A DNA stretch of 64,000 nt, taken from contig CAZINX010000004.1 in NCBI GenBank assembly GCA_964540795.1, positions 2,041 to 66,040 on the forward strand, read 5' to 3'. Positions 8,691 to 58,204 of the stretch are shown here, in pieces. Positions within the stretch are counted from its first letter, which is position 1, and each line of letters opens with the position of its first letter. Position numbers and translations under genes: made by a program. This DNA comes from an uncultured Hyphomicrobiaceae bacterium (GTDB lineage: Bacteria; Pseudomonadota; Alphaproteobacteria; Rhizobiales; Rhodomicrobiaceae). Under the pieces are notes generated by a model. The model was not told the origin of the DNA and did no database searches. It saw nothing but the letters and a program-made list of their open reading frames with translations.

Positions 8691-8694
8691 CGCC

Positions 8695-9396
8695 ATGCAG
8701 GTCGACCATCTGCGCACCCTTTCCGAGGATATGGCCGCGCGCCGGCCGGCCGCCCTGTTGACGTGGCTGGAGACCGGCGAACAGCGGATCATCCGCCGCG
8801 ACGAGATCGGCGCTGACACGCCCGCCGCGCTGGCCGAGGCGCTGGGAGAAGGCTTCCGCACCGACAAGAGCCGGACGGTCGAGATCGACGGACGCGAGGT
8901 CTTCATCAACGTCTACAATCCGCCGCTGCGCCTCATCATCATTGGCGCGGTGCACATCGCGCAGGCTCTCGCGCCGATGGCCGAGCAGGCGGGCTATGAC
9001 GTGGTCATCGTCGATCCGCGCACGGCCTTCGCCACGGTGCAGCGGTTTGAACGCGAGCGGCTCGACACGCGCTGGCCGGATGTTGCGCTGCCGGAGATCG
9101 GGCTGGACACGCGCACCGCGCTTGTCGCGCTCACGCATGACCCGAAGCTGGACGATCCTGCGCTGCATCTGGCGGTCGCATCCCCGGCGTTCTACATCGG
9201 CGCGCTAGGGAGCCGGCGCACGCACGCCAAGCGCGTTGAGCGGCTGCGCGAAGCCGGCATGAGCGAAGAGGGCATCGCGCGGATCAGCGCGCCGGTCGGG
9301 CTGTCGATCGGCGCGGTCGGGCCCGTGGAGATAGCCGTGTCGATCCTCGCGGAGATGACCGCCACGCTGCGGGGCAAGAAGCCCGAGCTCGGCTGA
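8695..9396 (+). CDS. XdhC family protein, Rossmann-like C-terminal-domain gene (CoxF-like)
   Basis: 233 aa. Motifs LIIIGAVHIAQALAPMA and GALGSRRTHAKRVERL are present. It starts 4 nt after the previous stop. Confidence 0.8.
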   Translation: MQVDHLRTLSEDMAARRPAALLTWLETGEQRIIRRDEIGADTPAALAEALGEGFRTDKSRTVEIDGREVFINVYNPPLRLIIIGAVHIAQALAPMAEQAGYDVVIVDPRTAFATVQRFERERLDTRWPDVALPEIGLDTRTALVALTHDPKLDDPALHLAVASPAFYIGALGSRRTHAKRVERLREAGMSEEGIARISAPVGLSIGAVGPVEIAVSILAEMTATLRGKKPELG

Positions 9397-9477
9397 TAAG
9401 CGCCATTTTTCCAGCCAAATCTCTTTCGACCCATCTCAGTGTACTCCGTGGGCAGAGCGGCGGGGGCGTGAAGGCGC

Positions 9478-10311
9478 ATGGCGCTCGGCTATTTCGCATT
9501 CGTGCTGGCCTGGACCTGGGGCTTCTGGAGCGTGCCCGTCGTAGTCGGCGGCAACCCTTGGGCGACGCCGAACGTCGCCTTCATCTATGTCGGCGGGGCG
9601 GGGCCGTTGCTGGGCGGCCTGATATTCACTTGTGCGCGTGGCGGACGGTCGGGCCTGCGGGAGCTTGGCGTGCGGCTGGTCGACCTGCGGCGGATCGGGC
9701 CAGTCTGGTGGCTGGCAGTGATTGGTCTCATTCCGCTGATCGAGGCGGCGGCCGCGGTCATCGCCGCGCAGGTGGCTGCTGCGCCGGCAGATGTTTTCAC
9801 GCCATTGACCGAAAATCTCGCCAATCCCGCCGCGTTCCTGGCGCTGGCCGGTTTCACGCTGATGCTCGGCCCGCTGCCCGAGGAGATCGGCTGGCGCGGT
9901 TTCGCCCTTTATGCGCTGCAGGCACGGTTCGCGCCGATCCTTGCCTCGCTGATTCTGGCCGCGGGCTGGGCAGCGTGGCACGCGCCGCTGTTCGTCATGG
10001 ACGGGTATTATGCACCTTTCGGGGGTTCGCCCGCGCCCTGGCAGTTCGCCTATGATATCCTGCTGACCACGCTGCTCATCACCTGGATCTACAACCACAC
10101 GGGCCGCAGCGTGCTCGCGGCTGTGCTGTTTCATTTCATGGGTAATTTCTCGGGAGAGATCGTGGCGTCTTCCGAGACAGGCGATCTCATCGCGACGGCC
10201 CTGACCACGCTTGTCACCGTCGCGGTGATCGCTGCGGGCGGGCTGCGCCGCGCGACCCCAAGGCGGGCGTGGCGACCCCGGCAGGATTCGAACCTGCGAC
10301 CCTCAGATTAG
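9478..10311 (+). CDS. CPBP (CAAX/Abi) family intramembrane metalloprotease
   Basis: 277 aa and polytopic. CPBP motifs EEIGWRGF, WAAWHAPLF and FHFMGNF are present. The last ~14 codons run antisense through tRNA-Arg, so the true stop or C-terminus is uncertain. Confidence 0.75.
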   Translation: MALGYFAFVLAWTWGFWSVPVVVGGNPWATPNVAFIYVGGAGPLLGGLIFTCARGGRSGLRELGVRLVDLRRIGPVWWLAVIGLIPLIEAAAAVIAAQVAAAPADVFTPLTENLANPAAFLALAGFTLMLGPLPEEIGWRGFALYALQARFAPILASLILAAGWAAWHAPLFVMDGYYAPFGGSPAPWQFAYDILLTTLLITWIYNHTGRSVLAAVLFHFMGNFSGEIVASSETGDLIATALTTLVTVAVIAAGGLRRATPRRAWRPRQDSNLRPSD

Positions 10312-10346
10312 GAATCTGATGCTCTATCCTGCTGAGCTACGGGGCC
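10270..10346 (-). tRNA. tRNA-Arg (anticodon CCU)
   Basis: The reverse complement is GGCCCCGTAGCTCAGCAGGATAGAGCATCAGATTCCTAATCTGAGGGTCGCAGGTTCGAATCCTGCCGGGGTCGCCA. It folds by hand into a 77-nt cloverleaf with anticodon loop TTCCTAA and an encoded CCA. Confidence 0.9.
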
Positions 10347-10395
10347 GTGCCCGAGATGTAGCACAATTCGCGCGCCAAAACAGCCTTGCCAAGGC

Positions 10396-10424
10396 TTGCA
10401 TCCGCAGCGCGCCTGTTACATAAT
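10396..10424 (+). promoter_or_regulatory. sigma70-like promoter candidate for the thermonuclease gene
   Basis: The pattern is TTGCAT (10396-10401), a 17-nt spacer, then CATAAT (10419-10424), about 30 nt upstream of ATG 10454. This is pattern only. Confidence 0.35.
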
Positions 10425-10453
10425 GCGTAAATAAATGACGGGGAGTTTTGCGT

Positions 10454-11293
10454 ATGAGGGCATTATCGAGGGGCGGGGGCCGAACGCTCGCGCTAATCAT
10501 TGCGGCAGTCATGCTGCTTGGCGCCGACATGGCCCGGGCCGCCTGCGATCTCAAGGACGCTGGCAAGGCGACGATCGTCGAGGTTCTCAACACGGAATCG
10601 CTGCTGCTGGAGGACGGCCGGGCGATCCGCCTTGTCGGCACGTTGAGCCCGCGCACCGAGACGCGCTGGGCGCAGGCGATGGGCCTTGAGGACAAGATTA
10701 TGGCCTCGCTGGAGGAGCGGCTGCTCGGCAAGGAAGTTCGGCTGCGCTTCGGCGCGCGCGAGCGGGACCGCTACGGGCGGCTGCTGACGCATGTGTTCGT
10801 CGGCGAAGGCGATGAACCGATCTGGGTGCAGGAGGCGCTGATCCGCGACGGGCTGGCGATGGTTTATTCGTTCGCTGATAATCGCGATTGCGTGCGCGAA
10901 CTGCAGCGCTCAGAGCGCGCCGCGCGCGAGGCGGAGGCGGGTTTGTGGGAGCAGGGCGTGTTCCGCGTGCGGGATGCGGCCGATCTCGACAGCCTGGACG
11001 GCCTTCTCTACAGCTTCCAGATCGTCGAGGGGCGCGTCGAGGATGTCGCCGAGAGCCGCGGGCGAATTTACCTGAATTTCGGCGATGACTGGCGCACCGA
11101 CTTTACCGCGACGGTCGCCCCGTCAGACCGCGACAGCTTCAGCGGCTCCGGCATCCAGCTTCCCGATCTGGAGGGGCGCGCCGTCCGCGTGCGCGGCTGG
11201 CTGGAGCGGCGAAACGGTCCCATGATCGACGTGACGCATCCCGAGCAGATCGAACTGGTGGGCGCTGGGGACAGCGCCGCGCTGGCCGACTGA
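10454..11293 (+). CDS. secreted thermonuclease (staphylococcal-nuclease-like, SNase) family protein
   Basis: The start is ATG 10454 after GGGGAG. The signal peptide is MRALSRGGGRTLALIIAAVMLLGADMARA. SNase-like blocks are present (LLLEDGRAIRLVG, RYGRLLTHVFV, QEALIRDGLAMVY, AREAEAGLWE). Confidence 0.8.
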   Translation: MRALSRGGGRTLALIIAAVMLLGADMARAACDLKDAGKATIVEVLNTESLLLEDGRAIRLVGTLSPRTETRWAQAMGLEDKIMASLEERLLGKEVRLRFGARERDRYGRLLTHVFVGEGDEPIWVQEALIRDGLAMVYSFADNRDCVRELQRSERAAREAEAGLWEQGVFRVRDAADLDSLDGLLYSFQIVEGRVEDVAESRGRIYLNFGDDWRTDFTATVAPSDRDSFSGSGIQLPDLEGRAVRVRGWLERRNGPMIDVTHPEQIELVGAGDSAALAD

Positions 11294-11303
11294 CGCCTCG
11301 TTC

Positions 11304-12023
11304 TCAGGAAGTGGCGCTGGTCTGCTCTTCCTTCATACGGGAGCGCGTTGCATCCACCAGCGCCTGAAACAGATGCCGCTGGTGGCTGTGATAGACGAGC
11401 AATTCGGGGTGCCACTGAACCCCGATCAGGAATGGGCGTTCGCGGTCCTCGACTCCCTGAATGATATGCTCCTCGTCATGCGCGGCGGCGACCAGGTTGC
11501 TCGCCAGCCGGTCGACCGCCTGGTGATGGATCGCATTCACGAAGACCCGGGGATGCTTGATGAGCCGCGCCAGCTTCGTGCCGGGCACCAACTCGATGCG
11601 CAGGCGCGGCATCACCGTGCGGCGGTTGGTGCGCCACAGCTTCTCGTCGAGGTCGTGGTGCAGCGTCCCGCCGAAGAAGACGTTGAGCATCTGCGCGCCC
11701 CGGCAGACGCCCATGATTGGCAGCCCGCGCGGCACCGCGCGCTCCAGCGCGGCAAGCTCGAAGCGGTCGCGCTCCTCGTCGATGCGGACGTCCAGCGTGA
11801 AATCGCCCTCGTAGAACCGCGCGGAGATGTCGTCGCCTCCGCCTATCAGCAGCCCGTCAAGATCATCCACGACCTCCGGCGGACAGTTTGCGCCGATCCG
11901 CTTCGGCCGCGCGCCCGCAAGCCTCAGCGCGAGCGCATTCCAGGCATAGCTGCACCGCCCGCGATGCCGCGAGGTTGACACGCCGATCAGGGGCCGTCTG
12001 GCGTTCTCCTCCGTTCCTCCCAC
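11304..12023 (-). CDS. class-I glutamine amidotransferase / peptidase C26 (gamma-glutamyl-GABA hydrolase-like)
   Basis: The catalytic motifs PIMGVCRGAQMLN and IGVQWHPE are present. I prefer the GTG start at 12023 (AGGAG 5 nt upstream). An alternative ATG lies at 12122. The rest of the 599-aa track ORF is antisense to the channel gene. Confidence 0.8.
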   Translation of the reverse strand: MGGTEENARRPLIGVSTSRHRGRCSYAWNALALRLAGARPKRIGANCPPEVVDDLDGLLIGGGDDISARFYEGDFTLDVRIDEERDRFELAALERAVPRGLPIMGVCRGAQMLNVFFGGTLHHDLDEKLWRTNRRTVMPRLRIELVPGTKLARLIKHPRVFVNAIHHQAVDRLASNLVAAAHDEEHIIQGVEDRERPFLIGVQWHPELLVYHSHQRHLFQALVDATRSRMKEEQTSATS

Positions 12024-16991: not shown

Positions 16992-18365
16992 TTAGCGCGG
17001 CAGCGTTTCGTCAACGGCCTGCCTTGTGGCCGCGACGACTTTGTCAACTTCCTCATGCGTGATGCACAGCGGCGGCGCGAAGCCGAGAATGTCGCCCTGC
17101 GGCATCGCCCGCGCGATGACGCCGTGGCGGGCGAGCGCCGCCGTCACCGTTGGACCGACCTTTTTCGCCGGGTCAAAGAAGGTCCGGCTGGCCTTGTCCT
17201 CGACGAACTCGACCGCCGCGAGCAGCCCTTCGCCGCGGACCTCGCCGACATGCGGGTGATCCGCCAGCGCCTCCCTGAGCTGCGCGTTAAAATAGGCGCC
17301 GACCTCGCGCGCGTTCGGCACGAGGGCCATCTTGTCGATCAGCTCCAGATTGGCGACGCCCGCCGCCGCGCAGACGGGATGCGCCGAATAGGTCCAGCTG
17401 TGCCCGAACGGGCCGAACTCGTCGGTGCCGCGCTCCAACACCTCCCAGACCTTGTGCGAGACAATCGAGCCGGACAGCGGGGCATAAGCCGAAGTGAGGC
17501 CCTTGGCGATGGCGATGATGTCCGGCTCCAGACCGTAATGCGCAGAGCCGAACATGGAGCCGAGCCGGCCAAAGCCGGTCACGACCTCGTCTGCGATCAG
17601 CAGAATGTCGTATTTCTTCAGGATCGGCTGGATCGCCTCCCAGTAGCCTGCCGGCGGCGGGACGATCCCGCCGGTGCCGAGCATCGGCTCGCCGATGAAC
17701 GCGGCGATCGTATCGGGCCCCTCGGCGAGGATCAGCTCCTCCAGCTTCTGGGCGCAGTACGCGCTGAACTCTGCCTCGCTCATTCCTGAGTCGGGCCGGC
17801 GCAGATAATACGGGGCTTCGGTGTGCAGCACCCGGTCGAGCGGCAGGTCGAACTTCTTGTGAAACATTTCCAGCCCGGTCAGCGAGCCGGACATCAGACC
17901 CGAGCCATGATAACCGCGCCAGCGGGAGATGATCTTCTTCTTGTCGGGCCGGCCGAGCACGTTGTTGTAGTACCAGACCAGCTTGATGTTGGTCTCGTTC
18001 GCGTCGGAGCCGCCCAGGCCGAAATAGACCTTCGACATGTTCGCGGGCGCGCGCTCCAGGACCATCTTCGCCAGCGTGATCGACGCTTCCGTGCCGTGGC
18101 CGACATAAGCGTGGTAGAAGGCGAGGTCGCGCGCCTGCTGCGCCATCGCCTCGGCGATCTCCTGCCGGCCGTAGCCGACATTGACGCAGTAAAGCCCGGC
18201 GAAGGCGTCCAGCAGCTTGTTGCCGTCGCGGTCCTCGATATAGACGCCGGAGCCGCTCGACACGATCCGGTTGGGGCTGTCGCCGCGGGCGTGCTGGGCG
18301 AGATGAGTCGAGGGATGAAAGAAATAATCCCGATCCCATTGATCCAGCTGGTCATTCTTGAGCAT
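16992..18365 (-). CDS. class-III (omega) PLP aminotransferase
   Basis: The start is ATG 18365 (MLKNDQLDQWDRDYFFHP...). Motifs GLYCVNVGYGR, ADEVVTGFGRLG and the Lys-bearing IAIAKGLTSAY are present. The longer track ORF is an upstream extension. Confidence 0.9.
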   Translation of the reverse strand: MLKNDQLDQWDRDYFFHPSTHLAQHARGDSPNRIVSSGSGVYIEDRDGNKLLDAFAGLYCVNVGYGRQEIAEAMAQQARDLAFYHAYVGHGTEASITLAKMVLERAPANMSKVYFGLGGSDANETNIKLVWYYNNVLGRPDKKKIISRWRGYHGSGLMSGSLTGLEMFHKKFDLPLDRVLHTEAPYYLRRPDSGMSEAEFSAYCAQKLEELILAEGPDTIAAFIGEPMLGTGGIVPPPAGYWEAIQPILKKYDILLIADEVVTGFGRLGSMFGSAHYGLEPDIIAIAKGLTSAYAPLSGSIVSHKVWEVLERGTDEFGPFGHSWTYSAHPVCAAAGVANLELIDKMALVPNAREVGAYFNAQLREALADHPHVGEVRGEGLLAAVEFVEDKASRTFFDPAKKVGPTVTAALARHGVIARAMPQGDILGFAPPLCITHEEVDKVVAATRQAVDETLPR

Positions 18366-18423
18366 GTTTCGTTCCTTCTTCCCCGAGGGCGACCGTTTTG
18401 ATAAAGCGGCATTAAACGCCGGA

Positions 18424-18445
18424 TGCGCGGCGTTTCGCAACCCGC
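18424..18445. promoter_or_regulatory. inverted repeat in the divergent aminotransferase / hydrolase promoter region
   Basis: AAACGCC-N8-GGCGTTT has perfect 7-bp arms and lies in the 110-bp divergent spacer. Confidence 0.2.
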
Positions 18446-18475
18446 CGCCGTGCAGGCCAGCCGGATCGGACAGCC

Positions 18476-19657
18476 ATGAGCGAACCCGTGCTTCCGTTTT
18501 CGCGCGCAGAATACGCAGCCCGCGTCGCAAAGACGCGCGCGGCGATGGAGGCGCGGGGCATCGATTTGCTGGCGGTGTCCGACCCTTCCAACATAGCCTG
18601 GCTGACGGGCTATGACGGCTGGTCGTTCTACACCCATCAATGCGTGCTGCTGAGCCTGGAGGGCGAGCCCGTCTGGTGGGGTCGCGGCATTGATCTGCCC
18701 GGCGCGTGGCGCACCGTGACGATGAGTCATGAAAACATCGTCGGCTATGACGACACCTACGTGCAGAACCCCGAAAAGCACGCGATGGAGGCGCTGGCGG
18801 ATCTGATCCTGGAGCGCGGCTTGGGGCAGGCGGTCATCGGTGTGGAGATGGAGAACTACTACTTCTCTGCCGCCGCCTATCTCACGCTGGTCAAGCACCT
18901 GCCCGACGCGACCTTCCGCGACGCGACCGCGCTGGTGAACTGGCAGCGCGCGGTGAAAAGCGCGGTCGAGATCGAATACATGCGCCGGGCCGCCCGCATC
19001 GTTGAGCGCGTGCATGAGATCATCTTCGAGCGCGCCGAGCCGGGCCTGCCGAAACACGAACTGGTGGCGGACATCTACCATGCGGCGATCCGTGGCGCGG
19101 ACGGCCACTGGGGCGACTACCCGGCCATTGTGCCGATCGTGCCGTCCGGGCTGGACGCCACTGCCGCGCATCTCACCTGGGACGACCGCCCACTGGCCGA
19201 AGGCGAGACCACCTTTTTCGAGATCGCCGGGGTGCATCGCCGCTATCACTGCCCGCAGTCGCGCACGCTTTTCCTCGGCGAGCCGCCGCAGAAATACCGG
19301 GACGCGGAAATCGCCGTGCTCTCGGGCATCGAGGCCGCGCTGGAGGCCGCCAAGCCCGGCAACCGCTGCGAGGATGTGGCGATCGCGTTCAACGAGACGC
19401 TCAACCGTTTCGGCTTCGTGAAGGAAAGCCGCTGCGGCTACCCCATCGGGCTCTCGTATCCGCCGGACTGGGGCGAGCGCACGATGTCGTTCCGCCGCGG
19501 CGACGAGACCGTGCTGGAGCCGGGCATGACTTTCCACTTCATGCCGGCGCTGTGGCTGGATGACGGCGGGCTGGAGATCAGCGAGCCGATCCTGATCACC
19601 GACGACGGGGTGGAGTGCCTCACCGAGACGCCGCGCCGCATGTTCGTGAAGGCATAG
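18476..19657 (+). CDS. M24 (creatinase/Xaa-Pro peptidase fold) hydrolase, ectoine hydrolase DoeA/EutD-like
   Basis: 393 aa. The N-terminus (FSRAEYAARVAKTRAAMEARGIDLLAVSDPSNIAWLTGYDGWSFY) and the M24 core (FFEIAGVHRRYH, GYPIGLSYPP, EPGMTFHF) are present. The DoeA assignment rests on memory of the family plus gene context. Confidence 0.75.
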   Translation: MSEPVLPFSRAEYAARVAKTRAAMEARGIDLLAVSDPSNIAWLTGYDGWSFYTHQCVLLSLEGEPVWWGRGIDLPGAWRTVTMSHENIVGYDDTYVQNPEKHAMEALADLILERGLGQAVIGVEMENYYFSAAAYLTLVKHLPDATFRDATALVNWQRAVKSAVEIEYMRRAARIVERVHEIIFERAEPGLPKHELVADIYHAAIRGADGHWGDYPAIVPIVPSGLDATAAHLTWDDRPLAEGETTFFEIAGVHRRYHCPQSRTLFLGEPPQKYRDAEIAVLSGIEAALEAAKPGNRCEDVAIAFNETLNRFGFVKESRCGYPIGLSYPPDWGERTMSFRRGDETVLEPGMTFHFMPALWLDDGGLEISEPILITDDGVECLTETPRRMFVKA

Positions 19658-19659
19658 CC

Positions 19660-20655
19660 ATGCCGCTGCGCAATCCAATCAGCCCGACGATCCCGTTCGA
19701 TCAGGACGGCGCGCATCACGGCTTCCTGCGTCTCCCGTATAGCCGCGACGACTCCGCCTGGGGGTCTGTGATGATCCCGATCAGCGTGATCCGCAACGGC
19801 GACGGGCCGACCGCGCTGTTCACCGGCGGCAACCACGGCGATGAGTACGAGGGGCCGGTGGCGCTACAACACCTGGCCGCGACGCTCGACCCGGCGACCA
19901 TCACGGGGCGCGTCATTATCGTGCCCGCCTTCAATTACCCGGCGTTTCGCGCGGCAAGCCGCACTTCGCCGATCGACGGCGGCAACCTGAACCGCTGCTG
20001 CCCCGGCCGCCCGGATGGCACTGTGACGGAAAAGATCGCCCACTATGTCTGCACTGAACTCGTGCCGATGGCCGATCTCGTGCTCGACTTTCACTCAGGC
20101 GGCAAGACGCTCGACTTCATCCCGTTCGCGGCAGCGCACATTCTGGAGGACAAGGCGCAGGAGGCCGCCTGCATGGCGGCGATGCGGGCGTTCAACGCGC
20201 CCTACAGTATGCGGATGCTGGAGATCGACAGCGCCGGGATGTTCGATACGGACGTGGAGGCGCAGGGCAAGGCGTTCGTCACCACCGAATTGGGCGGCGG
20301 CGGCACGGCCACGGCGCGCTCCATCGCCATCGCGAAGAAGGGCGCGCGCAACCTCCTGATCCATGCCGGCATCCTGGAGGGTTTGCCGGAAATGGCGTCA
20401 AGCATCGAGATGGACATGCCGGACGGCGACTGCTTCGTCTTCGCCGAGCATGACGGGCTGATCGAGCCGACCGCCGATCTCGGCGATTACGTTCGGCAGG
20501 GCGAGGAGGTCGCGCGCGTCTGGCCAACCGACCGCACCGGCGTGCCGCCCGTCAGGTATGCGGCGAAGCGCGACGGCATCCTCGCCGCGCGGCACTTCCC
20601 CGGTCTCGTCAAGGCGGGCGACTGCATGGCCGTTGTCGCCGAGGTGCTCGGCTGA
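19660..20655 (+). CDS. AstE/AspA-family zinc deacylase, N-acetyl-2,4-diaminobutyrate deacetylase DoeB/EutE-like
   Basis: ATG 19660 lies 3 nt after the previous stop. Motifs GGNHGDEYEGP, NRCCPG and DFHSGG are present. Confidence 0.75.
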   Translation: MPLRNPISPTIPFDQDGAHHGFLRLPYSRDDSAWGSVMIPISVIRNGDGPTALFTGGNHGDEYEGPVALQHLAATLDPATITGRVIIVPAFNYPAFRAASRTSPIDGGNLNRCCPGRPDGTVTEKIAHYVCTELVPMADLVLDFHSGGKTLDFIPFAAAHILEDKAQEAACMAAMRAFNAPYSMRMLEIDSAGMFDTDVEAQGKAFVTTELGGGGTATARSIAIAKKGARNLLIHAGILEGLPEMASSIEMDMPDGDCFVFAEHDGLIEPTADLGDYVRQGEEVARVWPTDRTGVPPVRYAAKRDGILAARHFPGLVKAGDCMAVVAEVLG

Positions 20656-30018: not shown

Positions 30019-30426
30019 TCAGGCGAGCGCTAAGACCATAACGCCGAGCAGCGCGACCATCTGCACAAGGTTGATGACAACGCTTGCCCGGTGAAGTGAT
30101 TCGAAGCGGTTGACGGCCGCCGCGCCCATGTCCCGCGCCGCGTTGATCCGCGGCATAAGCCAGAAGCGCGAGAGGACGAACAGCGCCGCCACTGCCGCCA
30201 GAATGACGCCCTCAAGCGTGCCGAGCGCCAGCACGGCCGCGAGCGCGCTCACGATCGCCAGAACGTCATAATATCGCGGGAACAGCCGCCGGATGAACGC
30301 GCCGGCCTCGTCCTCGGGGAAATGCGCGAACACCAGCGGCGCGACCACGGCGGCGAAGAACAACATCGCGCCGAGAACCCCGGCGGCGAGCAGTGCAGCA
30401 ATGTCGATGAGGGCAAAACTGTCCAT
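30019..30426 (-). CDS. DUF4149 (TMEM205-like) membrane protein
   Basis: 135 aa with four hydrophobic segments. It contains FFAAVVAPLVFAHFPEDEAGAFIRRLFPRYY. Confidence 0.7.
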   Translation of the reverse strand: MDSFALIDIAALLAAGVLGAMLFFAAVVAPLVFAHFPEDEAGAFIRRLFPRYYDVLAIVSALAAVLALGTLEGVILAAVAALFVLSRFWLMPRINAARDMGAAAVNRFESLHRASVVINLVQMVALLGVMVLALA

Positions 30427-30543: not shown

Positions 30544-31767
30544 ATGGCCGCGCACCCCGAACCAACGCGTGAGGCGGGTTTGGCACGCCTTGCGGACTTC
30601 GTGCCGCGCGCCGGGCGTGACTACGCAAAGCTGCGCAATTTTGACTTCGGGCCAGAACGACACACGCAGGTCTCCGGCCTGTCGCCCTGGCTTCGGCACC
30701 GGCTCGTGCTGGAGCAAGAGGTGGTCGCGCAGACGCTTGAGCGTCACAGCCTCTCATCGGCGGAGAAATTCGTGCAGGAGGTGGTCTGGCGCACCTATTT
30801 CAAGGGCTTCATGGAGCAGCGGCCAGGCATCTGGCGGGCCTATCGCCGGGATGTCGCCGCGCTCGCCGAGCGGCTGGAGGCCGAGCCGGGCCTGCGTACG
30901 GGCTATGCCGAGGCGGTCGAGGGGCGCACCGGCATTGACTGTTTCGACGCCTGGGCGCGCGAGCTGATCGAGACCGGCTATCTGCACAATCATGCCCGCA
31001 TGTGGTTCGCCAGCATCTGGATTTTCACCCTGCGTCTGCCGTGGCAGCTCGGCGCGGATTTCTTCCTGCGGCACCTGCTGGATGGCGATCCGGCCTCGAA
31101 CACGCTGGGCTGGCGCTGGGTTGGGGGGCTGCACACCCGCGGCAAGACATATCTGGCGCGGCCGGACAACATCGCGAAATTCACCGAGGGGCGGTTCAAC
31201 CCGTCGGGCCAGCTGGCGACATCCGCGCCGCCGCTAAGTGAGGATGAGGACCATCCGCTCGTGCCCCTGCGGCACAGGGAGTCGCCGGTTAAGCCGCGCC
31301 GGGCGGGCCTGCTGGTGACCGAGGAAGATTGCGCGCCGGAGACGATCGCCTGGCCCGCGCGGCCGGTTGCCGCAATCGGCCTCACGGCCACACAGGCGCG
31401 CTCGCCCCTGCCGGTGTCGGAGGGCGCGTGCAGCTTCGCGGAAGGCGCGGTCGCCGACGCGCTCGCCCGGGCCGGCGCGCATTTCGGCGCCGAAAGCCAG
31501 CAGCCGAAGACGGCGGATTGGGGCGCGGCGCTGACGGACTGGGCGCGCACAAATGATCTGGATACCGTGTTGACGGCTTACGCGCCGATTGGCCCGGCGG
31601 CCGAGCGCCTCGCGGCGGCGCGTGCGGCGCTGGCGGATGCGGGCGTCTCGCTCATCGAGGTGTTGCGCCCGTGGGACGCGGCGGCGTGGCCCCACGCGAC
31701 CAAGGGCTTCTTCAAGCTGAAGAAGCAGATGCCGGCGCTTATCGAAGCGGCAGCCATATCTCGTTGA
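30544..31767 (+). CDS. photolyase/cryptochrome-related protein that begins in the FAD-binding helical domain and has a 170-aa C-terminal extension
   Basis: 407 aa. The FAD-domain block is TGIDCFDAWARELIETGYLHNHARMWFASIWIFTLRLPWQLGADFFLRHLLDGDPASNTLGWRWVGG. No N-terminal alpha/beta domain is possible, because only 118 bp separate it from the divergent gene. Confidence 0.8.
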   Translation: MAAHPEPTREAGLARLADFVPRAGRDYAKLRNFDFGPERHTQVSGLSPWLRHRLVLEQEVVAQTLERHSLSSAEKFVQEVVWRTYFKGFMEQRPGIWRAYRRDVAALAERLEAEPGLRTGYAEAVEGRTGIDCFDAWARELIETGYLHNHARMWFASIWIFTLRLPWQLGADFFLRHLLDGDPASNTLGWRWVGGLHTRGKTYLARPDNIAKFTEGRFNPSGQLATSAPPLSEDEDHPLVPLRHRESPVKPRRAGLLVTEEDCAPETIAWPARPVAAIGLTATQARSPLPVSEGACSFAEGAVADALARAGAHFGAESQQPKTADWGAALTDWARTNDLDTVLTAYAPIGPAAERLAAARAALADAGVSLIEVLRPWDAAAWPHATKGFFKLKKQMPALIEAAAISR

Positions 31768-31782
31768 ATCGACAACGGAAAA

Positions 31783-31867
31783 TGGTGGAGGAGGTTGGAT
31801 TCGAACCAACGTAGGCATAGCCAGCGGATTTACAGTCCGCCCCCTTTAGCCACTCGGGCACTCCTCC
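31783..31867 (-). tRNA. tRNA-Tyr (anticodon GUA), copy 1
   Basis: The reverse complement is GGAGGAGTGCCCGAGTGGCTAAAGGGGGCGGACTGTAAATCCGCTGGCTATGCCTACGTTGGTTCGAATCCAACCTCCTCCACCA. It is an 85-nt class II tRNA with a long variable arm, anticodon loop CTGTAAA and an encoded CCA. Confidence 0.95.
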
Positions 31868-31935
31868 AAAATCCCGGAGCCCCTTCGGCGCGGATGGCCT
31901 TGGCGGGAATGGGTTGTGCGCGGATCGCCCACGTC
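31783..31935. repeat. left copy of the 153-bp direct repeat (tRNA-Tyr plus 68 nt of its 5' flank)
   Basis: By hand alignment to 34525-34677, the tRNA is 85/85 identical and the flank 61/68 identical, with no indels. The period is 2742 bp. Confidence 0.9.
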
Positions 31936-32054
31936 GCGCCGACCCGGTACAATTACCCTCTGCACCGGGACGAAAATGAGCATCATTACTTGGCGCAAGA
32001 TGACCGGCACCTCTGAATAATCCAGCCAAAATATACAAATCTTGTTGAGCGGGA

Positions 32055-33260
32055 ATGCGCGAGATGCCATTTCGTATTCCTGTCGGAATATCCCTTGACC
32101 GTCCAAAGCATTCATACTATCAAATCATCAGCCAAACAGAGGCATACGGGTTGTATAAAAGAATATTGGTCAACCTCTATGATAGGGAAAAATGGAGCAC
32201 TCTTATGGTTGTCGTTCTTAAAGAAGCATCGGCAAAAAGCAAAGGCATCGTAATGTTCACTCATAAAGAACGGCAACAAATCGAACACCCCAGTCGACGG
32301 GTGAGAAAATATATCTCAGGACTTCGAAATAATTATGTGATTGGTATGCACTTTGGGGGCTATCAAGCAAACGCCGTGCCGGATATATGGTGTATTGATT
32401 TTTTTATGGGCTCTCCAAATGTTTATACTGTAGCTCCAATATCAAAAACTCCAAGAATTCACCTTGCAAGTAGGAATTTTGTTCCGAATTATTTTGATTC
32501 AAAAGACAGACCTAAGTCGCCACGTTGGGATATCATCAATATCTCAAATGGAGGTAGGAATAAGAAGCTGGCCGAGTTCTTTTACGTCATGCAGGCGGTT
32601 ATGAAGAGGCGTCCAGAAACACGAATATTATTAATATCGCCTATTGTGACTGGCAAAAAAGCCGATAAAGAGTTATTTAATAATTATTACAGTTTGTTTT
32701 CCCAAGATCAAAGACGCCGTTTTACGTTCCTTCCGCTACATAGAGATCGCGAATTATATCCAATAGGCCGAGAAGATATTGCATTTTTGATGCGTAATAG
32801 TCGTTATTTGACATTATTTAGCGAGCGAGAGGGAGAATCTAGGGTTATTGCAGAGGCGCTGTGTTGTGGCTGCAAAGTCATTGTTCGCAGCTACCTACAG
32901 GGGGGGGGTCGGGATTTTCTAACACCAGAAAATTCTTTCCAGTTTTCGACATTGCAAGAGGCTCCTGATATATTCATAAATGCGCTAGAAGACGATACTA
33001 CGTTTGATAGCAAAGAAATCATAAAATACTTGCGAGTAGACTACACCAAAACTATATTTGAGTCCGAATTGAGGTCTGTTTTTGCCCACTATGGATTGCG
33101 TTGGGACGGACAACTTAAGCCACTTGAACTTGACCAGGCTTTGCCCGGGCATAGTAAGCTGCTCGACGAAAGATATAGGTCTGGCATGACCGATGATCTT
33201 GTCAAGGAATCAAAGATGTATAGTTTCTTGAAAGACGTTTACTTTGAGAAAACTATATGA
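32055..33260 (+). CDS. GT-B fold glycosyltransferase (family-1/GT4-like C-terminal domain), N-terminal half unassigned
   Basis: 401 aa. It contains RYLTLFSEREGESRVIAEALCCGCKVIVRSYLQGGGRDFLTPENSFQF, with an E-x7-E motif (EGESRVIAE). The start is uncertain: ATG 32055 has a weak RBS, and an internal ATG (MVVVLKE...) has GGAG 8 nt upstream. Confidence 0.7.
   Translation: MREMPFRIPVGISLDRPKHSYYQIISQTEAYGLYKRILVNLYDREKWSTLMVVVLKEASAKSKGIVMFTHKERQQIEHPSRRVRKYISGLRNNYVIGMHFGGYQANAVPDIWCIDFFMGSPNVYTVAPISKTPRIHLASRNFVPNYFDSKDRPKSPRWDIINISNGGRNKKLAEFFYVMQAVMKRRPETRILLISPIVTGKKADKELFNNYYSLFSQDQRRRFTFLPLHRDRELYPIGREDIAFLMRNSRYLTLFSEREGESRVIAEALCCGCKVIVRSYLQGGGRDFLTPENSFQFSTLQEAPDIFINALEDDTTFDSKEIIKYLRVDYTKTIFESELRSVFAHYGLRWDGQLKPLELDQALPGHSKLLDERYRSGMTDDLVKESKMYSFLKDVYFEKTI
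32900..32908 (+). repeat. homopolymeric G9 tract inside the glycosyltransferase CDS
   Basis: The tract reads CAG GGG GGG GGT and encodes QGGG, immediately after the E-x7-E motif. It sits in otherwise ~35% G+C DNA. Confidence 0.9.
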
Positions 33261-33345
33261 GTACCAATCCGTACAGTCGCTTGCCTCGAGTAAAGATAGA
33301 TACCAGTACACCATCTTCGTTCGTGGACCAATTTCATGCGTGACG

Positions 33346-34266
33346 TTAATAATATGCCATTACTAAAGCTGCGCGTTCTCCATCCGAGTCCTGCGGGAGC
33401 CCGCGATGGATGCCAGCTTGATCGGAGATTACAAGAGAGCCCTTGGAGCTCAGAACAGGAACCACCGATTGCAAGTCGATGAGCGGCGCTTCTGTTGAGC
33501 TGAAGGTCATTTGCGCGATCGCTTGGTTCATCCATCGCCATGGCCCGTCTTGAGCGGAGCCCCTAACGTAGCAGTATGGTCCATCTTCGAGGCGATTGAC
33601 GTCAGATAGATACACAAATCCCTTTAGTTTTCGCTTGTAACGGTCAACGTGAAATCCCCGCGTCTTCATTACGCCACGATTAATATAAAGATTTAGGTTG
33701 CGTGGCTGAACGGCCATACCGTCTCCGCTTAGCAAGCTGAGAATGGAATTGTTCGAAAATGGATCGCGCAATTCTTGTTGACTAGTGCCAGCAAGTCGAT
33801 CAAAATTAAAGGTATCAATCATTCCTTCGTCAGCCCCACGCCGCACATCTGCTACTGTCTTAGAATATGATGCCAGCGCCTGATAGCTGTTGAGCTTATA
33901 ATGTGCCGACTGCACTAAAATTCTATCGTCCTCAAAGTTATGATTATTGGATGACTGCGCCAATGCTGCCTCTAAGACCTTCAAACATTCCTCAGCAATA
34001 GATAGCTGAGAGGCTCTAAGAAAGTTTCTGACGACAACAATACCTTCAGAATCGAGAATTTTCCGGGCTTCAATAATATCGCTCGATTTCTGGACGCGTT
34101 CTACTGTAATTTCGTTGAGGCGCCGTTGAATAACGTCCATCGATAGCTCTTTGATCACCGATAAAAAACTATCGTTAATATTGCTTAGCGCTTTTTGATC
34201 TATCAGATATTCATCATGTTTTTGGCCGCGCGGGAGCAACTTTGACTTTAAGCGCATTTTTAGCAT
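33346..34266 (-). CDS. PhyH-like Fe(II)/2-oxoglutarate-dependent oxygenase
   Basis: 306 aa. The RBS GAGGT lies 6 nt before the ATG. It has H-x-D in GFHVDRYK, then LSDVNRLEDGPYCYVRGS and a distal His in GSLVISDQAGIHRG. Confidence 0.7.
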   Translation of the reverse strand: MLKMRLKSKLLPRGQKHDEYLIDQKALSNINDSFLSVIKELSMDVIQRRLNEITVERVQKSSDIIEARKILDSEGIVVVRNFLRASQLSIAEECLKVLEAALAQSSNNHNFEDDRILVQSAHYKLNSYQALASYSKTVADVRRGADEGMIDTFNFDRLAGTSQQELRDPFSNNSILSLLSGDGMAVQPRNLNLYINRGVMKTRGFHVDRYKRKLKGFVYLSDVNRLEDGPYCYVRGSAQDGPWRWMNQAIAQMTFSSTEAPLIDLQSVVPVLSSKGSLVISDQAGIHRGLPQDSDGERAALVMAYY

Positions 34267-34524
34267 ATTGACACCTCATTCGGACTTTTCGCCAGCCGAT
34301 CACTCTATGGCTCTTAAACCTCTGGGCAATATTATCAAAAAATTTTGGGTTGCCAATCAACGGATCCGGCAATCTGCAGGTCGTTATCTTAACTCTGGTA
34401 ACTTTCCTCCGCAACTACCTTTCGTCTGGCACCAAATTTTCAAGGAGCGCGGAAGCGTTGCCCTGAAAGGCTATTAAAATCGCTTCTCCTGACTTACTGG
34501 CGTATCATTCATATATCGATGAAT

Positions 34525-34609
34525 TGGTGGAGGAGGTTGGATTCGAACCAACGTAGGCATAGCCAGCGGATTTACAGTCCGCCCCCTTTAGCCACTCGGG
34601 CACTCCTCC
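34525..34609 (-). tRNA. tRNA-Tyr (anticodon GUA), copy 2
   Basis: It is identical over all 85 nt to copy 1. Confidence 0.95.
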
Positions 34610-34677
34610 ATAATCCCGGAGTCCCTTCGGCGCGGATGGCCTTGGCGGGAATCGGTCGCGCGCGGATCGCCCGCGAC
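34525..34677. repeat. right copy of the 153-bp direct repeat
   Basis: See the left copy. The seven mismatches all lie in the 68-nt flank. Confidence 0.9.
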
Positions 34678-34738
34678 CTTTTCTGTGTTATGGGAGGCTG
34701 TGATCGTTCTGTCAACCGCAGCCGAATGTTGCGCACCG

Positions 34739-35536
34739 ATGAGCCGACAGCCGAAATCGCGCGGGCCAAACACACCGGCTGCCAAACGCCGCAGCGCCAA
34801 GCCTGCGGCCGGCCGGCGCGTGGGCGTCATGATCTTTGGCCTACACGCGGCACGCGCCGCGATTGCCAACACCGAACGCAAAATCCGCGCGGTTCTGGCG
34901 ACCGCCAATGCCGCCGAAAAGCTGAGCGATGTACTCGCCGCGCGTGGGCTGACGCCGCAAATCGTCCGGCCCGACGATCTCGCGGCCCGTTTAGGCGCGA
35001 GCGCGGTGCATCAGGGCGTGGTCGTGGAGACCGAGCCGCTGCCGCCGCGCGACATCGCGAGCTTCGAGGCTCTCAACCTCGTCGTCGTGCTCGACCAAGT
35101 CACCGATCCGCAGAATGTCGGCGCGATCCTGCGCAGCGCGGCCGCCTTTGGCGCGGACGGGCTGGTGACGACCGCGCGGCACTCGCCGCCGCTGGAAGGC
35201 GCCCTGGCCAAGGCCGCGTCGGGCGGGCTGGAGCATGTGCCGGTGGCGCTGATCCCGAACCTCGCGCGCGGGCTGGAAGAGTTGGGCGAACGCGGCGTCA
35301 TGCGGATCGGACTGGATTCGTGCGGCGATCAGGTGTTCGAGGATTTGCCGGCGTTCGACCGGCTGGCGCTCGTGCTCGGCGCGGAGGACAAGGGCCTGCG
35401 CCGCCTCACCCGCGCGCACTGCGACGCGGTTTGCGCGCTGGCCGCGCCGGGCGCGATTCATAGCCTGAATGTTTCGAACGCCGCGGCCATCGCTCTGCAT
35501 CACGCCTGGCTCAAGCGGCGGCAGGCGTCCAGATAG
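34739..35536 (+). CDS. rlmB: 23S rRNA (guanosine-2'-O)-methyltransferase RlmB (SpoU/TrmH family)
   Basis: The start is ATG 34739 (MSRQPKSRGPNTPAAKRR...). SpoU motifs VVLDQVTDPQNVGAILRSAAAFG, LVLGAEDKGLR and SLNVSNAAAIAL are present. Confidence 0.85.
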   Translation: MSRQPKSRGPNTPAAKRRSAKPAAGRRVGVMIFGLHAARAAIANTERKIRAVLATANAAEKLSDVLAARGLTPQIVRPDDLAARLGASAVHQGVVVETEPLPPRDIASFEALNLVVVLDQVTDPQNVGAILRSAAAFGADGLVTTARHSPPLEGALAKAASGGLEHVPVALIPNLARGLEELGERGVMRIGLDSCGDQVFEDLPAFDRLALVLGAEDKGLRRLTRAHCDAVCALAAPGAIHSLNVSNAAAIALHHAWLKRRQASR

Positions 35537-55688: not shown

Positions 55689-58088
55689 TCATTCCGCCAC
55701 AGCGGCCTGCGCGCGGGCGGGCGGAAGCTCTGTGATGATGTCGGCGAGACTGCAGCGATTGTTGTTCAGCTTGTTCACCAGCTGAATGAAGTTGCGGAAC
55801 GACGGGCTCCGCCCGAAGACCGCCGCGGTCTCCGAGTCCGGCGTGTAAGCCGGGATCCTGCACTCGCTCGGGAACCCGATCTGCTCGGCGATCATGTTCT
55901 GGGTCGTCCGCGACAGGTGCCATCCCAGCGGCATGTAGAAGTAGTCGTGCTGCAGCTCCACCGAGTAGAACCGCTCGAACGCCTCGCCCGTCTTGACGCG
56001 CCATTTCGCCAACTGGCCGCGCCGCCGCCGCGTCTTGTCGAGCGTCATGACCGGCGCGCCAAACTCGGTTAGCCCCGCCGGCTCCAGATCGGCGGTGAAG
56101 TCCTCATTCAGGATGATGATGCGAAATTCCGGTTGAACATCGAGCGTGTCCGACAGCCGGTCGATCCGCTGCTTGATGCCGTTGACCAGGTCGATCGCGG
56201 TCTCGATCGCCGAGCTTTCGAAATAGCCGCCATCCACCAGGTTCTTCTGCGAGAAGTGGAACGGCGAAATCTGCCGCGGATAGGCCCCCGGCGGCAGGAT
56301 GATCGGGAATCGCGCGCTCAGGCTGACGGCAGTGGCGAGCGAGATGTCTTGCTCGGCCGGCAGGCCGTCCTCGCCCTCCGCCATGATCGGGTAGACGAAC
56401 TCCATCGGCACGATCGGGTCTTTCAGGAACGGCGCCACGATGAAACGCTCGCCGGTCTCCACGCTGGTGGTGTTGAGCACGAGGGTGGGCGCCTGCACCT
56501 CCGGGTCGCGGAAATCGGCCGAAACGCTGAGGAAGTTTTGCTCAAACGGAATCTCTCCCTCTGCCTCGCCGCCGTGGGCGCGGTTCGTGTCGAGCCATGC
56601 GTGATTCAGGCTGGCCTCGAAGGCGCGGGCGCGGTCGAGAACACCGAAGCCGGGCACGATGAACCGCTGAAAGAAGTCCGGGAACAGTGCGCCGGACAGC
56701 ACCGGCGACAGGAAGTCATGGCCCAGATAGGTGCGGATGTCGCGTTCGAGGTCGCTGACGCGCCCGTCCGTCCTGGCCTGAAGCTCGCAGTAATCCCCCA
56801 TCACCTCCGGGCTTTCGCTGCGCCGCGCCTGTAGCCAGAAGCTGTTGAACACGCTCGCGCCCAGGCTGCCGCCGGAGACGCCGCTGATGGCGAAAACGTG
56901 GTGGCGCAGCGCAGGGCAGGCCGTGTAAAGCCGCGCCATCGTCAGCGCCGCGAGATTGGCCGCATAGACGCCGCCGCCCTGCGCCGCGACCACATAGACC
57001 GGATAGGTCTGCTGAGCGCTGTTGGCATACAGCCGTTTGCGCTCGTCCGGCCGGGCGTCGAGCCAGTCCAGGAAGGCGATGTAAAGGTCGTCCGGCTTGG
57101 CCTGAGCCTCAGGGCTGGCCGGCTGCATCCGCACGCGATGGTTGTTGTTCCAGTTGAAGAACGCGAAGATCAGCGCCGCCGAGACGAGAATGGTGACCGC
57201 CGGGATACCGATAACGTCATAGATGCGCGTACAGCCCGCCAGCAGATAGGTCAGCGCCATCAGAAAGATGCAGATGATGGCGAAGCTGCCCGCGCCCGTG
57301 ATGATCCAGGTGACGAGCAGCGGCCCGCCGCCGAGCGAGCGGATGATCGGCTGGGCCGCCACCAGCGCGATGATCGCGCCGATCGCGACCACGATCGGAA
57401 TGAAATACCGCAGCGAGAACGGCTGCTCGCCGAAATGCGTGCCGCGCTGCGTTGCGCGCCACAGCAGAAACAGGAACATCACCAGCATCAGCGCCGCCGT
57501 CGCCTGAATGGCGATCAGCAGATACACCGCCACCTGATTGTAATTGTCGACGATGTCGGTGATGTAGGGCGGGAAATCGGTTTGCCCGCGCAGGCTCTGG
57601 ACGATGTCCTGGGAGACGACCGCGAACTGTCCGCCGACGGTCTCGCGCTCTTCGGCGCTGGGGATGCCGACCTCCGCGATCAGCCCGACGGTCGAGACGA
57701 CGCCGGCCGGCATCATTGCCATCATGACGCCGATGATCGGAAGCAGCGCGATAATCATCGAAAAGACATGAGAGATGACCCGCGCGAGCGGGCTGAAGGT
57801 GATATGCGGGTCAATATCGACGGAATTTTTCCAGAGCGAGCGCGACATCGACCAGAGAAAATAGCTCAGCGCTGCCAGCAGGATCAGCGAGATGATCGGC
57901 CGGTACGGCGCCGTCTCAACTTCGAGCGCCAGTGCGCGGTAGATTTCTCGGGTCTGGCCGGGGACGTAGAAAACGATGAATGCGCCGACCGAGATCAGCA
58001 GCGGCGCGCGCATATCCCAGATGACGTCGCCGATAATCTTGAAAAAGCGCCAGATGAGCGGCAGCTGCCCAGCTTCGCGTTGCGACAT
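55689..58088 (-). CDS. patatin-like phospholipase with a large N-terminal polytopic membrane domain
   Basis: It is 799 aa from ATG 58088 (alternative TTG at 58139). About 7-8 hydrophobic segments lie in the first ~330 aa. Then come the oxyanion AAQGGGVYAA, the nucleophile elbow ISGVSGGSLG and the catalytic Asp in LVDGGYFES. Confidence 0.8.
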   Translation of the reverse strand: MSQREAGQLPLIWRFFKIIGDVIWDMRAPLLISVGAFIVFYVPGQTREIYRALALEVETAPYRPIISLILLAALSYFLWSMSRSLWKNSVDIDPHITFSPLARVISHVFSMIIALLPIIGVMMAMMPAGVVSTVGLIAEVGIPSAEERETVGGQFAVVSQDIVQSLRGQTDFPPYITDIVDNYNQVAVYLLIAIQATAALMLVMFLFLLWRATQRGTHFGEQPFSLRYFIPIVVAIGAIIALVAAQPIIRSLGGGPLLVTWIITGAGSFAIICIFLMALTYLLAGCTRIYDVIGIPAVTILVSAALIFAFFNWNNNHRVRMQPASPEAQAKPDDLYIAFLDWLDARPDERKRLYANSAQQTYPVYVVAAQGGGVYAANLAALTMARLYTACPALRHHVFAISGVSGGSLGASVFNSFWLQARRSESPEVMGDYCELQARTDGRVSDLERDIRTYLGHDFLSPVLSGALFPDFFQRFIVPGFGVLDRARAFEASLNHAWLDTNRAHGGEAEGEIPFEQNFLSVSADFRDPEVQAPTLVLNTTSVETGERFIVAPFLKDPIVPMEFVYPIMAEGEDGLPAEQDISLATAVSLSARFPIILPPGAYPRQISPFHFSQKNLVDGGYFESSAIETAIDLVNGIKQRIDRLSDTLDVQPEFRIIILNEDFTADLEPAGLTEFGAPVMTLDKTRRRRGQLAKWRVKTGEAFERFYSVELQHDYFYMPLGWHLSRTTQNMIAEQIGFPSECRIPAYTPDSETAAVFGRSPSFRNFIQLVNKLNNNRCSLADIITELPPARAQAAVAE

Positions 58089-58204
58089 GGCTCGATACCC
58101 CCGGCTAAACCGGCCGTGTTGACCGTTTGTTAACCACAACTACCACGCAGACGCCTTTCGCAGAAGCGGTCGCGCGCTGTCCGCGGCCCGATTGTCCCCG
58201 ACCT

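Follow-up and report, generated by a model that had tools for sequence, protein, structure and literature searches.

A low-G+C islet with a predicted glycosyltransferase-oxygenase gene pair between two complete copies of tRNA-Tyr in an uncultured bacterium related to Dichotomicrobium

A short islet of low G+C content was found between two complete tRNA-Tyr genes in a 64,000-nucleotide stretch of DNA (hereafter the window), which comprises positions 2,041 to 66,040 of contig CAZINX010000004.1 in the assembly GCA_964540795.1 of an uncultured Hyphomicrobiaceae bacterium. The host organism is related to Dichotomicrobium (Hyphomicrobiales) and has a G+C content of ~66%. From the end product observed today, the islet is best read as the result of a single recombinase-independent insertion that duplicated its own target, an event of the kind called insertion with long target duplication, and this reading is held here with about even confidence. 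The present case stands out in two respects: the target that was duplicated comprises a whole tRNA gene and the adjoining leader, and the cargo combines a glycosyltransferase gene and an oxygenase gene in a pairing that is recurrent and uncharacterised.

A repeat search of the window returned one direct repeat of 154 nt, with arms at 31780-31933 and 34522-34675, 95% identity and a spacing of 2742. Each arm carries a complete tRNA-Tyr(GUA) on the minus strand, at 31783-31867 in the left arm and at 34525-34609 in the right arm, both identified by ARAGORN (anticodon gta) and both scoring 60.3 bits in Rfam, and each arm consists of the leader and the whole tRNA, ending at the encoded CCA. Besides these two tRNAs, the Rfam search of positions 31500-35000 detected no structured RNA. 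The base-by-base comparison revealed that the tRNA bodies were identical (85/85) and that the 68-nt leaders, placed at 31868-31935 in the left copy and at 34610-34677 in the right copy, both on the minus strand, shared 61 of 68 positions with no indels. These values reproduced exactly the 153-bp repeat with a 2742-bp period that an initial annotation had read from the letters alone. The leader mismatches were located, in left-arm coordinates, at 31869, 31880, 31911, 31915, 31917, 31931 and 31934, and the divergence between the arms, which amounted to 4.6%, was confined to the leader. All six mismatches internal to the repeat fell in the leader and none in the tRNA, a distribution with P = 0.008 under random placement along the repeat. 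The perfect identity of the left and right tRNAs could be due to selection, to gene conversion or to identity of the donor.

The initial annotation had taken the 68 nt as the promoter side of the tRNA, which the alignment with related loci corrected. The native tRNA-Tyr promoter was placed at 34687-34715 on the minus strand, with a –35 hexamer TTGACA (34715-34710), a 17-nt spacer and a –10 hexamer CATAAC (34692-34687), and it was identical in the right copy of the window and in three related loci described below (L173, L007 and L174). Since this conserved promoter sits outside the repeat, the duplicated 68 nt are best interpreted as the transcribed 5′ leader and not as the promoter. The repeat spans the sequence from ~4-8 nt past the tRNA-Tyr transcription start, predicted near 34680, to the encoded mature CCA end, and therefore the repeated unit is almost exactly a 3′-processed pre-tRNA. 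The native promoter was not found 5′ of the left tRNA copy by alignment, and the consensus scan detected no promoter-like site there either; with only the leader duplicated, and not the promoter, the left copy was left without a recognisable promoter. Thus, the native promoter and leader remain with the right copy, which has lost the native 3′ flank, whereas the left copy lacks the native promoter and keeps the native 3′ flank, its downstream sequence aligning with L173 and L007.

The origin of the two leaders could also be distinguished by alignment. The right leader was orthologous to the leader of L173 and 96.6% identical to it, whereas the left leader presented 90.2% identity to that of L173 and 93.4% to the right one, and five of the six internal leader differences were private to the left copy. 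The leader is specific to this lineage, being partly alignable to those of L007 and L174 and not alignable to that of a further relative, L001. The tRNA body, for its part, looks the same in the window as in L173 and L001. Fold prediction revealed a G+C-rich hairpin at the 5′ end of the leader (34654-34678, minus strand), and the 5′ edge of the repeat falls within the 5′ arm of this hairpin. The stem was preserved in relatives by means of wobble or compensatory changes. For example, C-to-U changes in the hairpin of L173 (4457-4481) yielded G:U pairs that left the stem intact. In the left copy of the window, a C:G pair (34673/34659) was replaced by U:A (31931/31917) through two private changes that form a compensatory pair, and a third private change disrupted a hairpin pair. 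The hairpin had no match in Rfam and looks like a conserved pre-tRNA leader element.

The DNA between the arms differs sharply in composition from everything around it. The unique insert (31934-34521) comprised 2588 bp with 43.9% G+C, against 65.7% in the remaining window, and the G+C profile that the initial annotation had proposed as a check thus bore out the abrupt drop it had described. Windows of 300 nt between the arms ranged from 36 to 46% G+C, against 60-75% in the flanks, and the insert was the sole AT-rich patch in the 64 kb, every other 1-kb block having at least 60% G+C. The G+C content at third codon positions (GC3) was 0.38 and 0.47 in the islet genes, against 0.81-0.86 in host genes. 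The drop, of ~22 points in G+C and ~40 points in GC3, was confined exactly to the DNA between the arms. One limit of the homology coincides with the CCA and the other lies within the leader hairpin, and no extra native DNA was present between the arms and the insert on either side. The left non-coding end of the insert (31934-32204) presented 45.8% G+C, its first ~85 nt being apparently G+C-richer by eye, and neither a Pfam match in its open reading frames (ORFs) nor a promoter-like site was found in it. The right non-coding end, placed between the 3′ end of the right tRNA and the oxygenase gene (34267-34524), contained a σ70-like site on the minus strand (34356-34329). The comparison of both ends with native DNA and with the relatives' loci by blastn-short returned only chance matches of 13-15 nt, with no trace of a donor promoter or of a native spacer.

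The native flanks of the islet allowed the same locus to be followed in other genomes, which were located by scanning a genome collection with RlmB and then, for closer relatives, by searching with the photolyase-like protein. The left flank is the gene of a photolyase-related FAD-binding protein (30544-31767, plus strand; Pfam FAD_binding_7, E 2.5e-25), convergent with the tRNA; only 15 nt separate its stop codon from the left tRNA copy at the 3′ end of the latter. The right flank is rlmB (34739-35536, plus strand), which encodes the 23S rRNA Gm2251 methyltransferase (SpoU_methylase, E 2e-34; TIGR00186, E 8.5e-44; synteny in relatives) and is divergent from the right tRNA-Tyr. In L173 (GCA_964474225.1), the photolyase-like protein was 89% identical and its gene was next to a single tRNA-Tyr, and gene order matched that of the window from the Usp gene to the large glutamate dehydrogenase gene, with native G+C throughout and without the islet. 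Likewise, L007 (photolyase-like protein 83% identical) presented the same immediate neighbours as the window, one tRNA-Tyr, native G+C and no islet. These empty single-tRNA sites in the closest relatives available indicate that the islet arose by insertion in the lineage of the window and that a single tRNA-Tyr is the ancestral state. The alignment of relatives that the initial annotation had called for therefore confirmed, together with composition, its view of the islet as foreign DNA. It had left two origins for the tRNA pair, of which the duplication of the tRNA along with the acquisition was upheld, whereas a pre-existing tandem pair was not, as no relative has one.

A single tRNA-Tyr beside rlmB was also observed in L174, from Dichotomicrobium thermohalophilum (QXDF01000001.1), whose photolyase-like protein was 80% identical. 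In this genome, three genes of native G+C, coding for an acetyltransferase, a D-Ser-dehydratase-like protein and a hydrolase of the haloacid dehalogenase type, lie between the 3′ terminus of tRNA-Tyr and the photolyase-like gene (9235-11625 of the locus). They are absent from the window and from L173, which points to the tRNA-Tyr 3′ flank as a recurrent point of gene-content change within the family. No tandem tRNA-Tyr pair was found at the locus among the 30 related loci scanned, nor in L173 and L174, and the nearest relatives by RlmB were metagenome-assembled genomes of uncultured Hyphomicrobiaceae in which tRNA-Tyr was solitary. In most Alphaproteobacteria examined (loci L005-L030), rlmB adjoined tRNA-Tyr, tRNA-Gly and tRNA-Trp, often together with tuf, while in the Hyphomicrobiaceae clade (window, L001, L004, L007 and L173) tRNA-Tyr stood alone beside rlmB, the tRNA-Gly/tuf part having been relocated. 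Divergence at four-fold degenerate sites between the window and L173 was 0.225, and the left leader carried five substitutions of its own in ~66 nt, values that would agree with an insertion that took place once the lineages of the window and of L173 had separated, and that fit the barely ameliorated composition of the islet.

According to the favoured reading, a 2.6-kb cassette of low G+C, acquired by horizontal transfer, would have entered exactly at the 3′ (CCA) end of a single tRNA-Tyr, within the 15 nt that separate it from the convergent photolyase-like gene. The insertion would have copied 153 bp of its target, comprising the 68-nt transcribed leader and the whole 85-nt tRNA, and the outcome would be an insert bracketed by two complete tRNA-Tyr genes. 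In agreement with the initial annotation, which had reported two convergent genes and no integrase or transposase, the Pfam search found no integrase or transposase domain in the two islet ORFs, in the small ORFs or in the non-coding parts. The same search was negative for 36 other ORFs of the window (30 long ones plus the flanking genes). The non-coding stretches of the islet measure only 271 and 258 nt, which leaves no room for a recombinase pseudogene. Moreover, the leader is host-lineage DNA, 93% identical to the resident one and poorly alignable beyond the lineage, so an AT-rich foreign element could not have brought the repeat as its attP site; judging from this alignment, the repeat would have been copied from resident DNA, or from DNA of a very close relative.

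Insertions with long target duplication were described by Nobusato et al. (2000, Gene 259:99), Furuta et al. (2010, PMC2853133) and Lim et al. (2012, PMC3457768). The published integrase-less insertions presented target duplications of 46-270 bp and often a lower G+C content, and they mainly involved restriction-modification systems (46-bp repeats), other DNAs and an rRNA gene (270 nt) (PMC2853133, PMC3457768). Three features by which such events are recognised were observed here, namely an empty site in relatives, repeats longer than 30 bp that match the target and the absence of a mobility gene. In fact, both arms matched the single-copy target of L173, the tRNA being apparently identical. 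As in the described cases, a short foreign segment without a mobility gene is absent from a close relative, and the direct repeats around it, which measure tens to hundreds of bp, correspond to a target that the empty genome has in single copy and permit deletion or amplification. Unlike those cases, the target here is a complete essential tRNA gene with its transcribed leader, the cargo is a putative glycan-modification pair and the arms have diverged, with all of the differences in the leader. Having been copied from one target, the arms would be expected to be identical, or nearly so, at their formation, and the contrast observed between tRNA and leader could stem from subsequent decay of the promoterless copy or from its import from a relative.

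Several observations weigh against this reading. The mechanism was deduced from its end product, and no biochemistry has been established for long target duplication. On the 3′ side, the insert begins exactly at the CCA, which is a classical hallmark of islands inserted by tyrosine integrases, and an integrase acting in trans is possible, the genome having been viewed through 64 kb. Starting from identical arms, five changes must have accumulated in the left leader against at most one in the right leader, which needs either relaxed constraint on the left copy or a left arm imported from a close relative. Finally, the compensatory pair at 31931/31917 hints at selection on a functional leader and not at free decay.

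The boundary at the CCA is also the best argument for a rival explanation that is unlikely but deserves to be weighed first, in which a classical tRNA-targeting element, whose attP held the whole tRNA-Tyr plus leader, lost its tyrosine integrase by deletion or depended on one in trans, the islet being a cis-mobilisable remnant. Insertion at the exact 3′ end of a tRNA is the canonical position of such islands, and the integrase inspection covered 64 kb of the genome. The islet resembles these islands in that foreign DNA of atypical composition, absent from relatives, lies at the exact tRNA 3′ end with a direct repeat of the tRNA at its far end, and in that a functional tRNA was kept. Islander, a procedure to find islands in tRNA genes (tDNAs), requires an integrase inside or overlapping the island and an intact tDNA accompanied by a displaced end-fragment in the same orientation, full-length tRNA matches being rejected (PMC4383910). 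Neither of the two defining features, the integrase inside and the displaced fragment, was found here (PMC4383910). The absence of an integrase extends to the islet and to the 36 window ORFs, with neither pseudogene space nor Pfam matches in the non-coding stretches, and the unit is only 2.7 kb long. Moreover, the displaced copy is a full gene with a 68-nt host-specific leader that is 93% identical to the host leader and unconserved outside the close lineage.

The phages HP1 of Haemophilus and T12 of Streptococcus offer another point of comparison. Their att homology starts at the crossover point and reaches as far as the transcription unit does on its 3′ side, and the phage that carries it has an integrase of its own. 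According to PMC2853133 and the references given there, att identities spanning an entire tRNA gene were reported for a few phages, including these two, whose repeats, like those of the islet, hold a complete tRNA gene. In the islet, by contrast, the additional homology runs 5′ into the lineage-specific leader, and both phage and integrase are absent.

The import of the left arm, mentioned above as one way to account for its private changes, was also considered as an explanation in its own right, with a probability somewhat below that of a lost or distant integrase. The structure would have formed in a close relative and would have been imported by homologous recombination, through a Campbell-type crossover in the tRNA body of a circular or tandem fragment, the left leader being donor DNA. 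The apparent identity of the tRNA body in the window, L173 and L001 would offer 85 bp of perfect cross-species homology for such a crossover. Moreover, the right leader is the ortholog of that of L173, the left one is more distant from both, its five private changes include a compensatory pair, and all six mismatches are in the leader and none in the tRNA. However, in situ decay of a promoterless leader predicts the same pattern of mismatches, and the genome, protein and metagenome searches detected neither the cassette nor the left-leader variant in any other genome. In addition, import merely shifts the origin of the association between tRNA and islet one step back.

The view that the two tRNA genes arose first by tandem duplication and that foreign DNA was captured between them later, one of the two origins left by the initial annotation, was judged improbable. 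It is favoured by the end product, which consists of two complete tRNA-Tyr genes in tandem orientation, as in the tyrT-tyrV locus of E. coli, where two identical tandem tRNA-Tyr genes lie behind one promoter, are separated by a native spacer of ~200 bp and can be reduced to one by recombination. The islet shares with tyrT-tyrV the two identical genes, their orientation and their reducibility to a single copy, and differs from it in that the two genes are set apart by 2.6 kb of DNA that is foreign and codes for proteins, and that relatives are single-copy. Nevertheless, every relative examined had a single tRNA-Tyr (30 loci plus L173 and L174), and a capture would need two events, the second one exactly at the duplication junction, with no native spacer left on either side. 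A literature search on recombination at tyrT/tyrV and on integrase-less tRNA islands yielded nothing usable. A more speculative reading, which starts from the near match of the repeat to a 3′-processed pre-tRNA and from the compensatory change in the left leader hairpin, was rated slightly lower still; here, the islet would be a recombinase-free type of mobile cassette whose portable homology arm is an entire, universally conserved tRNA transcription unit. In a more exotic form of this reading, the duplication would have been templated by the pre-tRNA transcript or an R-loop, and not by DNA breakage. If the tRNA were a portable arm, the cassette would spread among related bacteria by homologous recombination.

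The reality of the structure was assessed with a separately built contig, Logan SRR15425357_88805 (assembled in 5 samples), which matched positions 31839-34554 exactly. It covers both junctions, one from the islet through the left leader into the 5′ part of the tRNA and the other from the 3′ part of the tRNA into the islet, and it ends 29-30 nt inside the identical tRNA body on each side. A collapsed or duplicated assembly repeat, a possibility allowed for in the initial annotation of the second tRNA copy, was rejected because the leaders differ at 6-7 positions and the independent contig agrees. A subtler artefact, considered very improbable, is that a free 2742-bp circle containing the islet, one leader and one tRNA-Tyr was threaded into the chromosome through the 85-bp tRNA. 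The ends of the Logan contig inside the tRNA would suit it, as a loop through a tRNA node in a short-k de Bruijn graph looks alike whether the unit is integrated or episomal. However, the unit encodes no replication protein and was nevertheless assembled in five samples, the 187-kb NCBI contig resolves through it, and it showed no similarity to any plasmid or phage. Lastly, although surface-glycan genes are often AT-rich while being long-resident, it is scarcely credible that these are ancient native genes of odd composition lost by relatives, since the G+C and GC3 drop is confined exactly to the space between the arms, the nearest protein relatives are only 57% and 39% identical, with related loci mostly from low-G+C marine metagenomes, and, above all, the sites of L173 and L007 are seamless with a single tRNA, which effectively refutes it.

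The arrangement may have consequences for expression and stability. The oxygenase gene has the orientation of the right tRNA copy, lies 258 nt downstream of it and has a σ70-like site of its own (34356-34329), and neither the terminator scan nor the fold prediction detected a canonical terminator after this copy. Transcription from the strong promoter of the right tRNA may continue into the oxygenase gene, in addition to that from its own site. The left tRNA copy, being promoterless, may depend on read-through. As the initial annotation had anticipated, the 153-bp arms can in principle delete or amplify the cassette while always leaving a tRNA-Tyr, and RecA-type recombination between them would either restore the ancestral L173-like single-copy site precisely or amplify the cassette.

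The cargo consists of two convergent genes, ORF1 and ORF2, which are the only genes in the islet. The initial annotation had regarded the cargo as functionally unassigned, a description that no longer holds, since homology and fold prediction point to a GT4-like glycosyltransferase and a PhyH-type oxygenase whose genes are also adjacent elsewhere. ORF1 (32205-33260, plus strand) encodes 351 aa and its start was taken at M51 of a 401-aa ORF that begins at 32055, because the homology of its relatives begins at residue 49-51, with a conserved N-terminus M..KGI..FTHKE, and an independent gene call also started at M51 (351 aa). The Glycos_transf_1 domain was matched by all 12 aligned members of the ORF1 family (E<=0.01; best E 3e-10), whereas the window protein itself reached 16.9 bits, below the Pfam cut-off of 26.4, which tells against the assignment. 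An E209-x7-E217 motif (E-x7-E), placed in the C-terminal domain, was invariant across the family alignment. The AlphaFold2 (AF2) model presented a mean predicted local distance difference test (pLDDT) score of 76, and its top Foldseek matches were TarM, PimA, BshA, WaaG and MshA (E 7e-9 to 1e-6; template modelling (TM) score ~0.45-0.5). Its nearest protein relative was 39% identical, and a HMMER scan of 1.84e9 representatives recovered ~210 clusters of homologues at E<=1e-30. These results support the prediction of ORF1 as a GT4-type (retaining) glycosyltransferase of the GT-B fold, with two Rossmann domains.

ORF2 (33346-34266, minus strand; 306 aa) was assigned to the PhyH-type Fe(II)/2-oxoglutarate (2OG) oxygenases by Pfam, motifs and fold prediction. 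It scored 23.2 bits against Pfam PhyH (PF05721), whose cut-off is 22, and it presented a TRGFH-x-D motif in which H206-x-D208, together with H287, R288 and R298, was invariant in 32 homologues. These conserved residues correspond to the Fe(II)/2OG triad and the 2OG-binding arginine. The AF2 model, with a pLDDT of 92.7, adopted a double-stranded beta-helix fold, and Foldseek matched it to the alpha-ketoglutarate (alpha-KG) oxygenases 8zyb, SnoK, SnoN, AviO1, HygX, EvdO1 and KanJ (E ~1e-9 to 3e-10), several of which are enzymes that tailor natural-product sugars. The family is small, with 39 matches among 5.8 billion proteins, the best non-self match being 57% identical. A scan of viral contigs with the oxygenase returned a single weak match of 26% identity.

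The pair is not restricted to the window. In at least 13 loci besides the window, an ORF1 homologue and an ORF2 homologue were immediate neighbours, and their relative orientation varied, with co-directional as well as convergent arrangements. Examples of such loci, mostly metagenome contigs, are L085 (10001-11920), L092, L110, L116, L118, L126, L135, L142 and L152. The loci with cargo homologues had a median G+C of 29%, and most of them came from a metagenome scan of marine samples. Their annotated neighbours included NeuB, CMP-sugar synthetase, DegT aminotransferases, acetyltransferases, pyruvyl transferase, a GT-D-like protein and capsule-synthesis genes, and, among the 31 loci at least 8 kb long, 18 had a NeuB homologue no more than 10 kb away. 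Relatives of ORF2 usually belong to nonulosonic-acid, capsule, O-antigen or polysaccharide clusters of low-GC marine bacteria. In the window itself, no nonulosonic-acid pathway gene, NeuB homologue included, was found within the 64 kb. Homology, fold and neighbourhood thus suggest that the cassette is a glycan-tailoring pair, composed of a glycosyltransferase and an oxidative tailoring enzyme, detached from its usual biosynthetic cluster, and that the cargo probably decorates a surface glycan. The pair resembles glycan-decorating modules, such as the serotype-converting gtr/oac genes and other pairs of a glycosyltransferase and a tailoring enzyme, in being small, AT-rich and horizontally mobile. 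It likewise resembles the pairs of this type in nonulosonic-acid, capsule or O-antigen clusters in that its homologues lie near NeuB, CMP-sugar synthetase, DegT and acetyltransferase genes. Unlike gtr modules, it lacks a flippase, the bactoprenol-linked gtrA/B logic and a phage context.

No tRNA was found in the 91 fetched loci (~608 kb) with homologues of ORF1 or ORF2, in a scan for which the window served as positive control, and the two genes thus do not bring flanking tRNAs with them as a rule. Searches with PADLOC and PHROGs gave no matches for the cassette, which is thus not a known defence or phage module. Similarly, a plasmid collection held no match for the islet DNA or for either protein, and a phage collection held none for the islet DNA.

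Other features of the window lie outside the islet. The native left flank continues with the gene of a DUF4149 protein (30019-30426, minus strand), recognised by a domain match. Another tRNA gene, tRNA-Arg(CCT) (10270-10346, minus strand), adjoins a staphylococcal-nuclease-like gene (10448-11293), and neither a compositional anomaly nor a repeat was found at that site, where no island is evident. Positions 2590-9396 hold a molybdopterin-dependent dehydrogenase cluster of the CO-dehydrogenase or xanthine-dehydrogenase type, comprising a large subunit with MoCoBD domains, a FAD-binding subunit, an AAA ATPase, a CoxE-like protein with a von Willebrand factor A (VWA) domain and XdhC. The genes of a class-III aminotransferase, of an M24/creatinase-like peptidase and of an AstE/AspA-family deacylase adjoin one another at 16992-20655, an arrangement that resembles an ectoine-degradation (doe-like) cluster and would suit a halophilic relative of Dichotomicrobium. 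An 816-aa ORF at 55689-58139 (minus strand) had a host-like GC3 of 0.86 and no Pfam match at E<=1e-5.

Overall, the islet represents a fairly ordinary instance of horizontal gene transfer that overturns nothing in current understanding, and at the same time a well-documented natural case of a foreign cassette placed at a tRNA gene without a recombinase gene of its own, with empty sites available in relatives. Island finders that demand an integrase and reject full-length tRNA matches would discard it (PMC4383910), and islets of this kind would consequently be missed systematically. The clean separation of promoter and leader predicts which tRNA copy would be expressed and whether the tRNA promoter would drive the oxygenase gene in this bacterium. 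Finally, the GT4-like and PhyH-type pair, recurrent in other loci, emerges as a candidate glycan-tailoring module.

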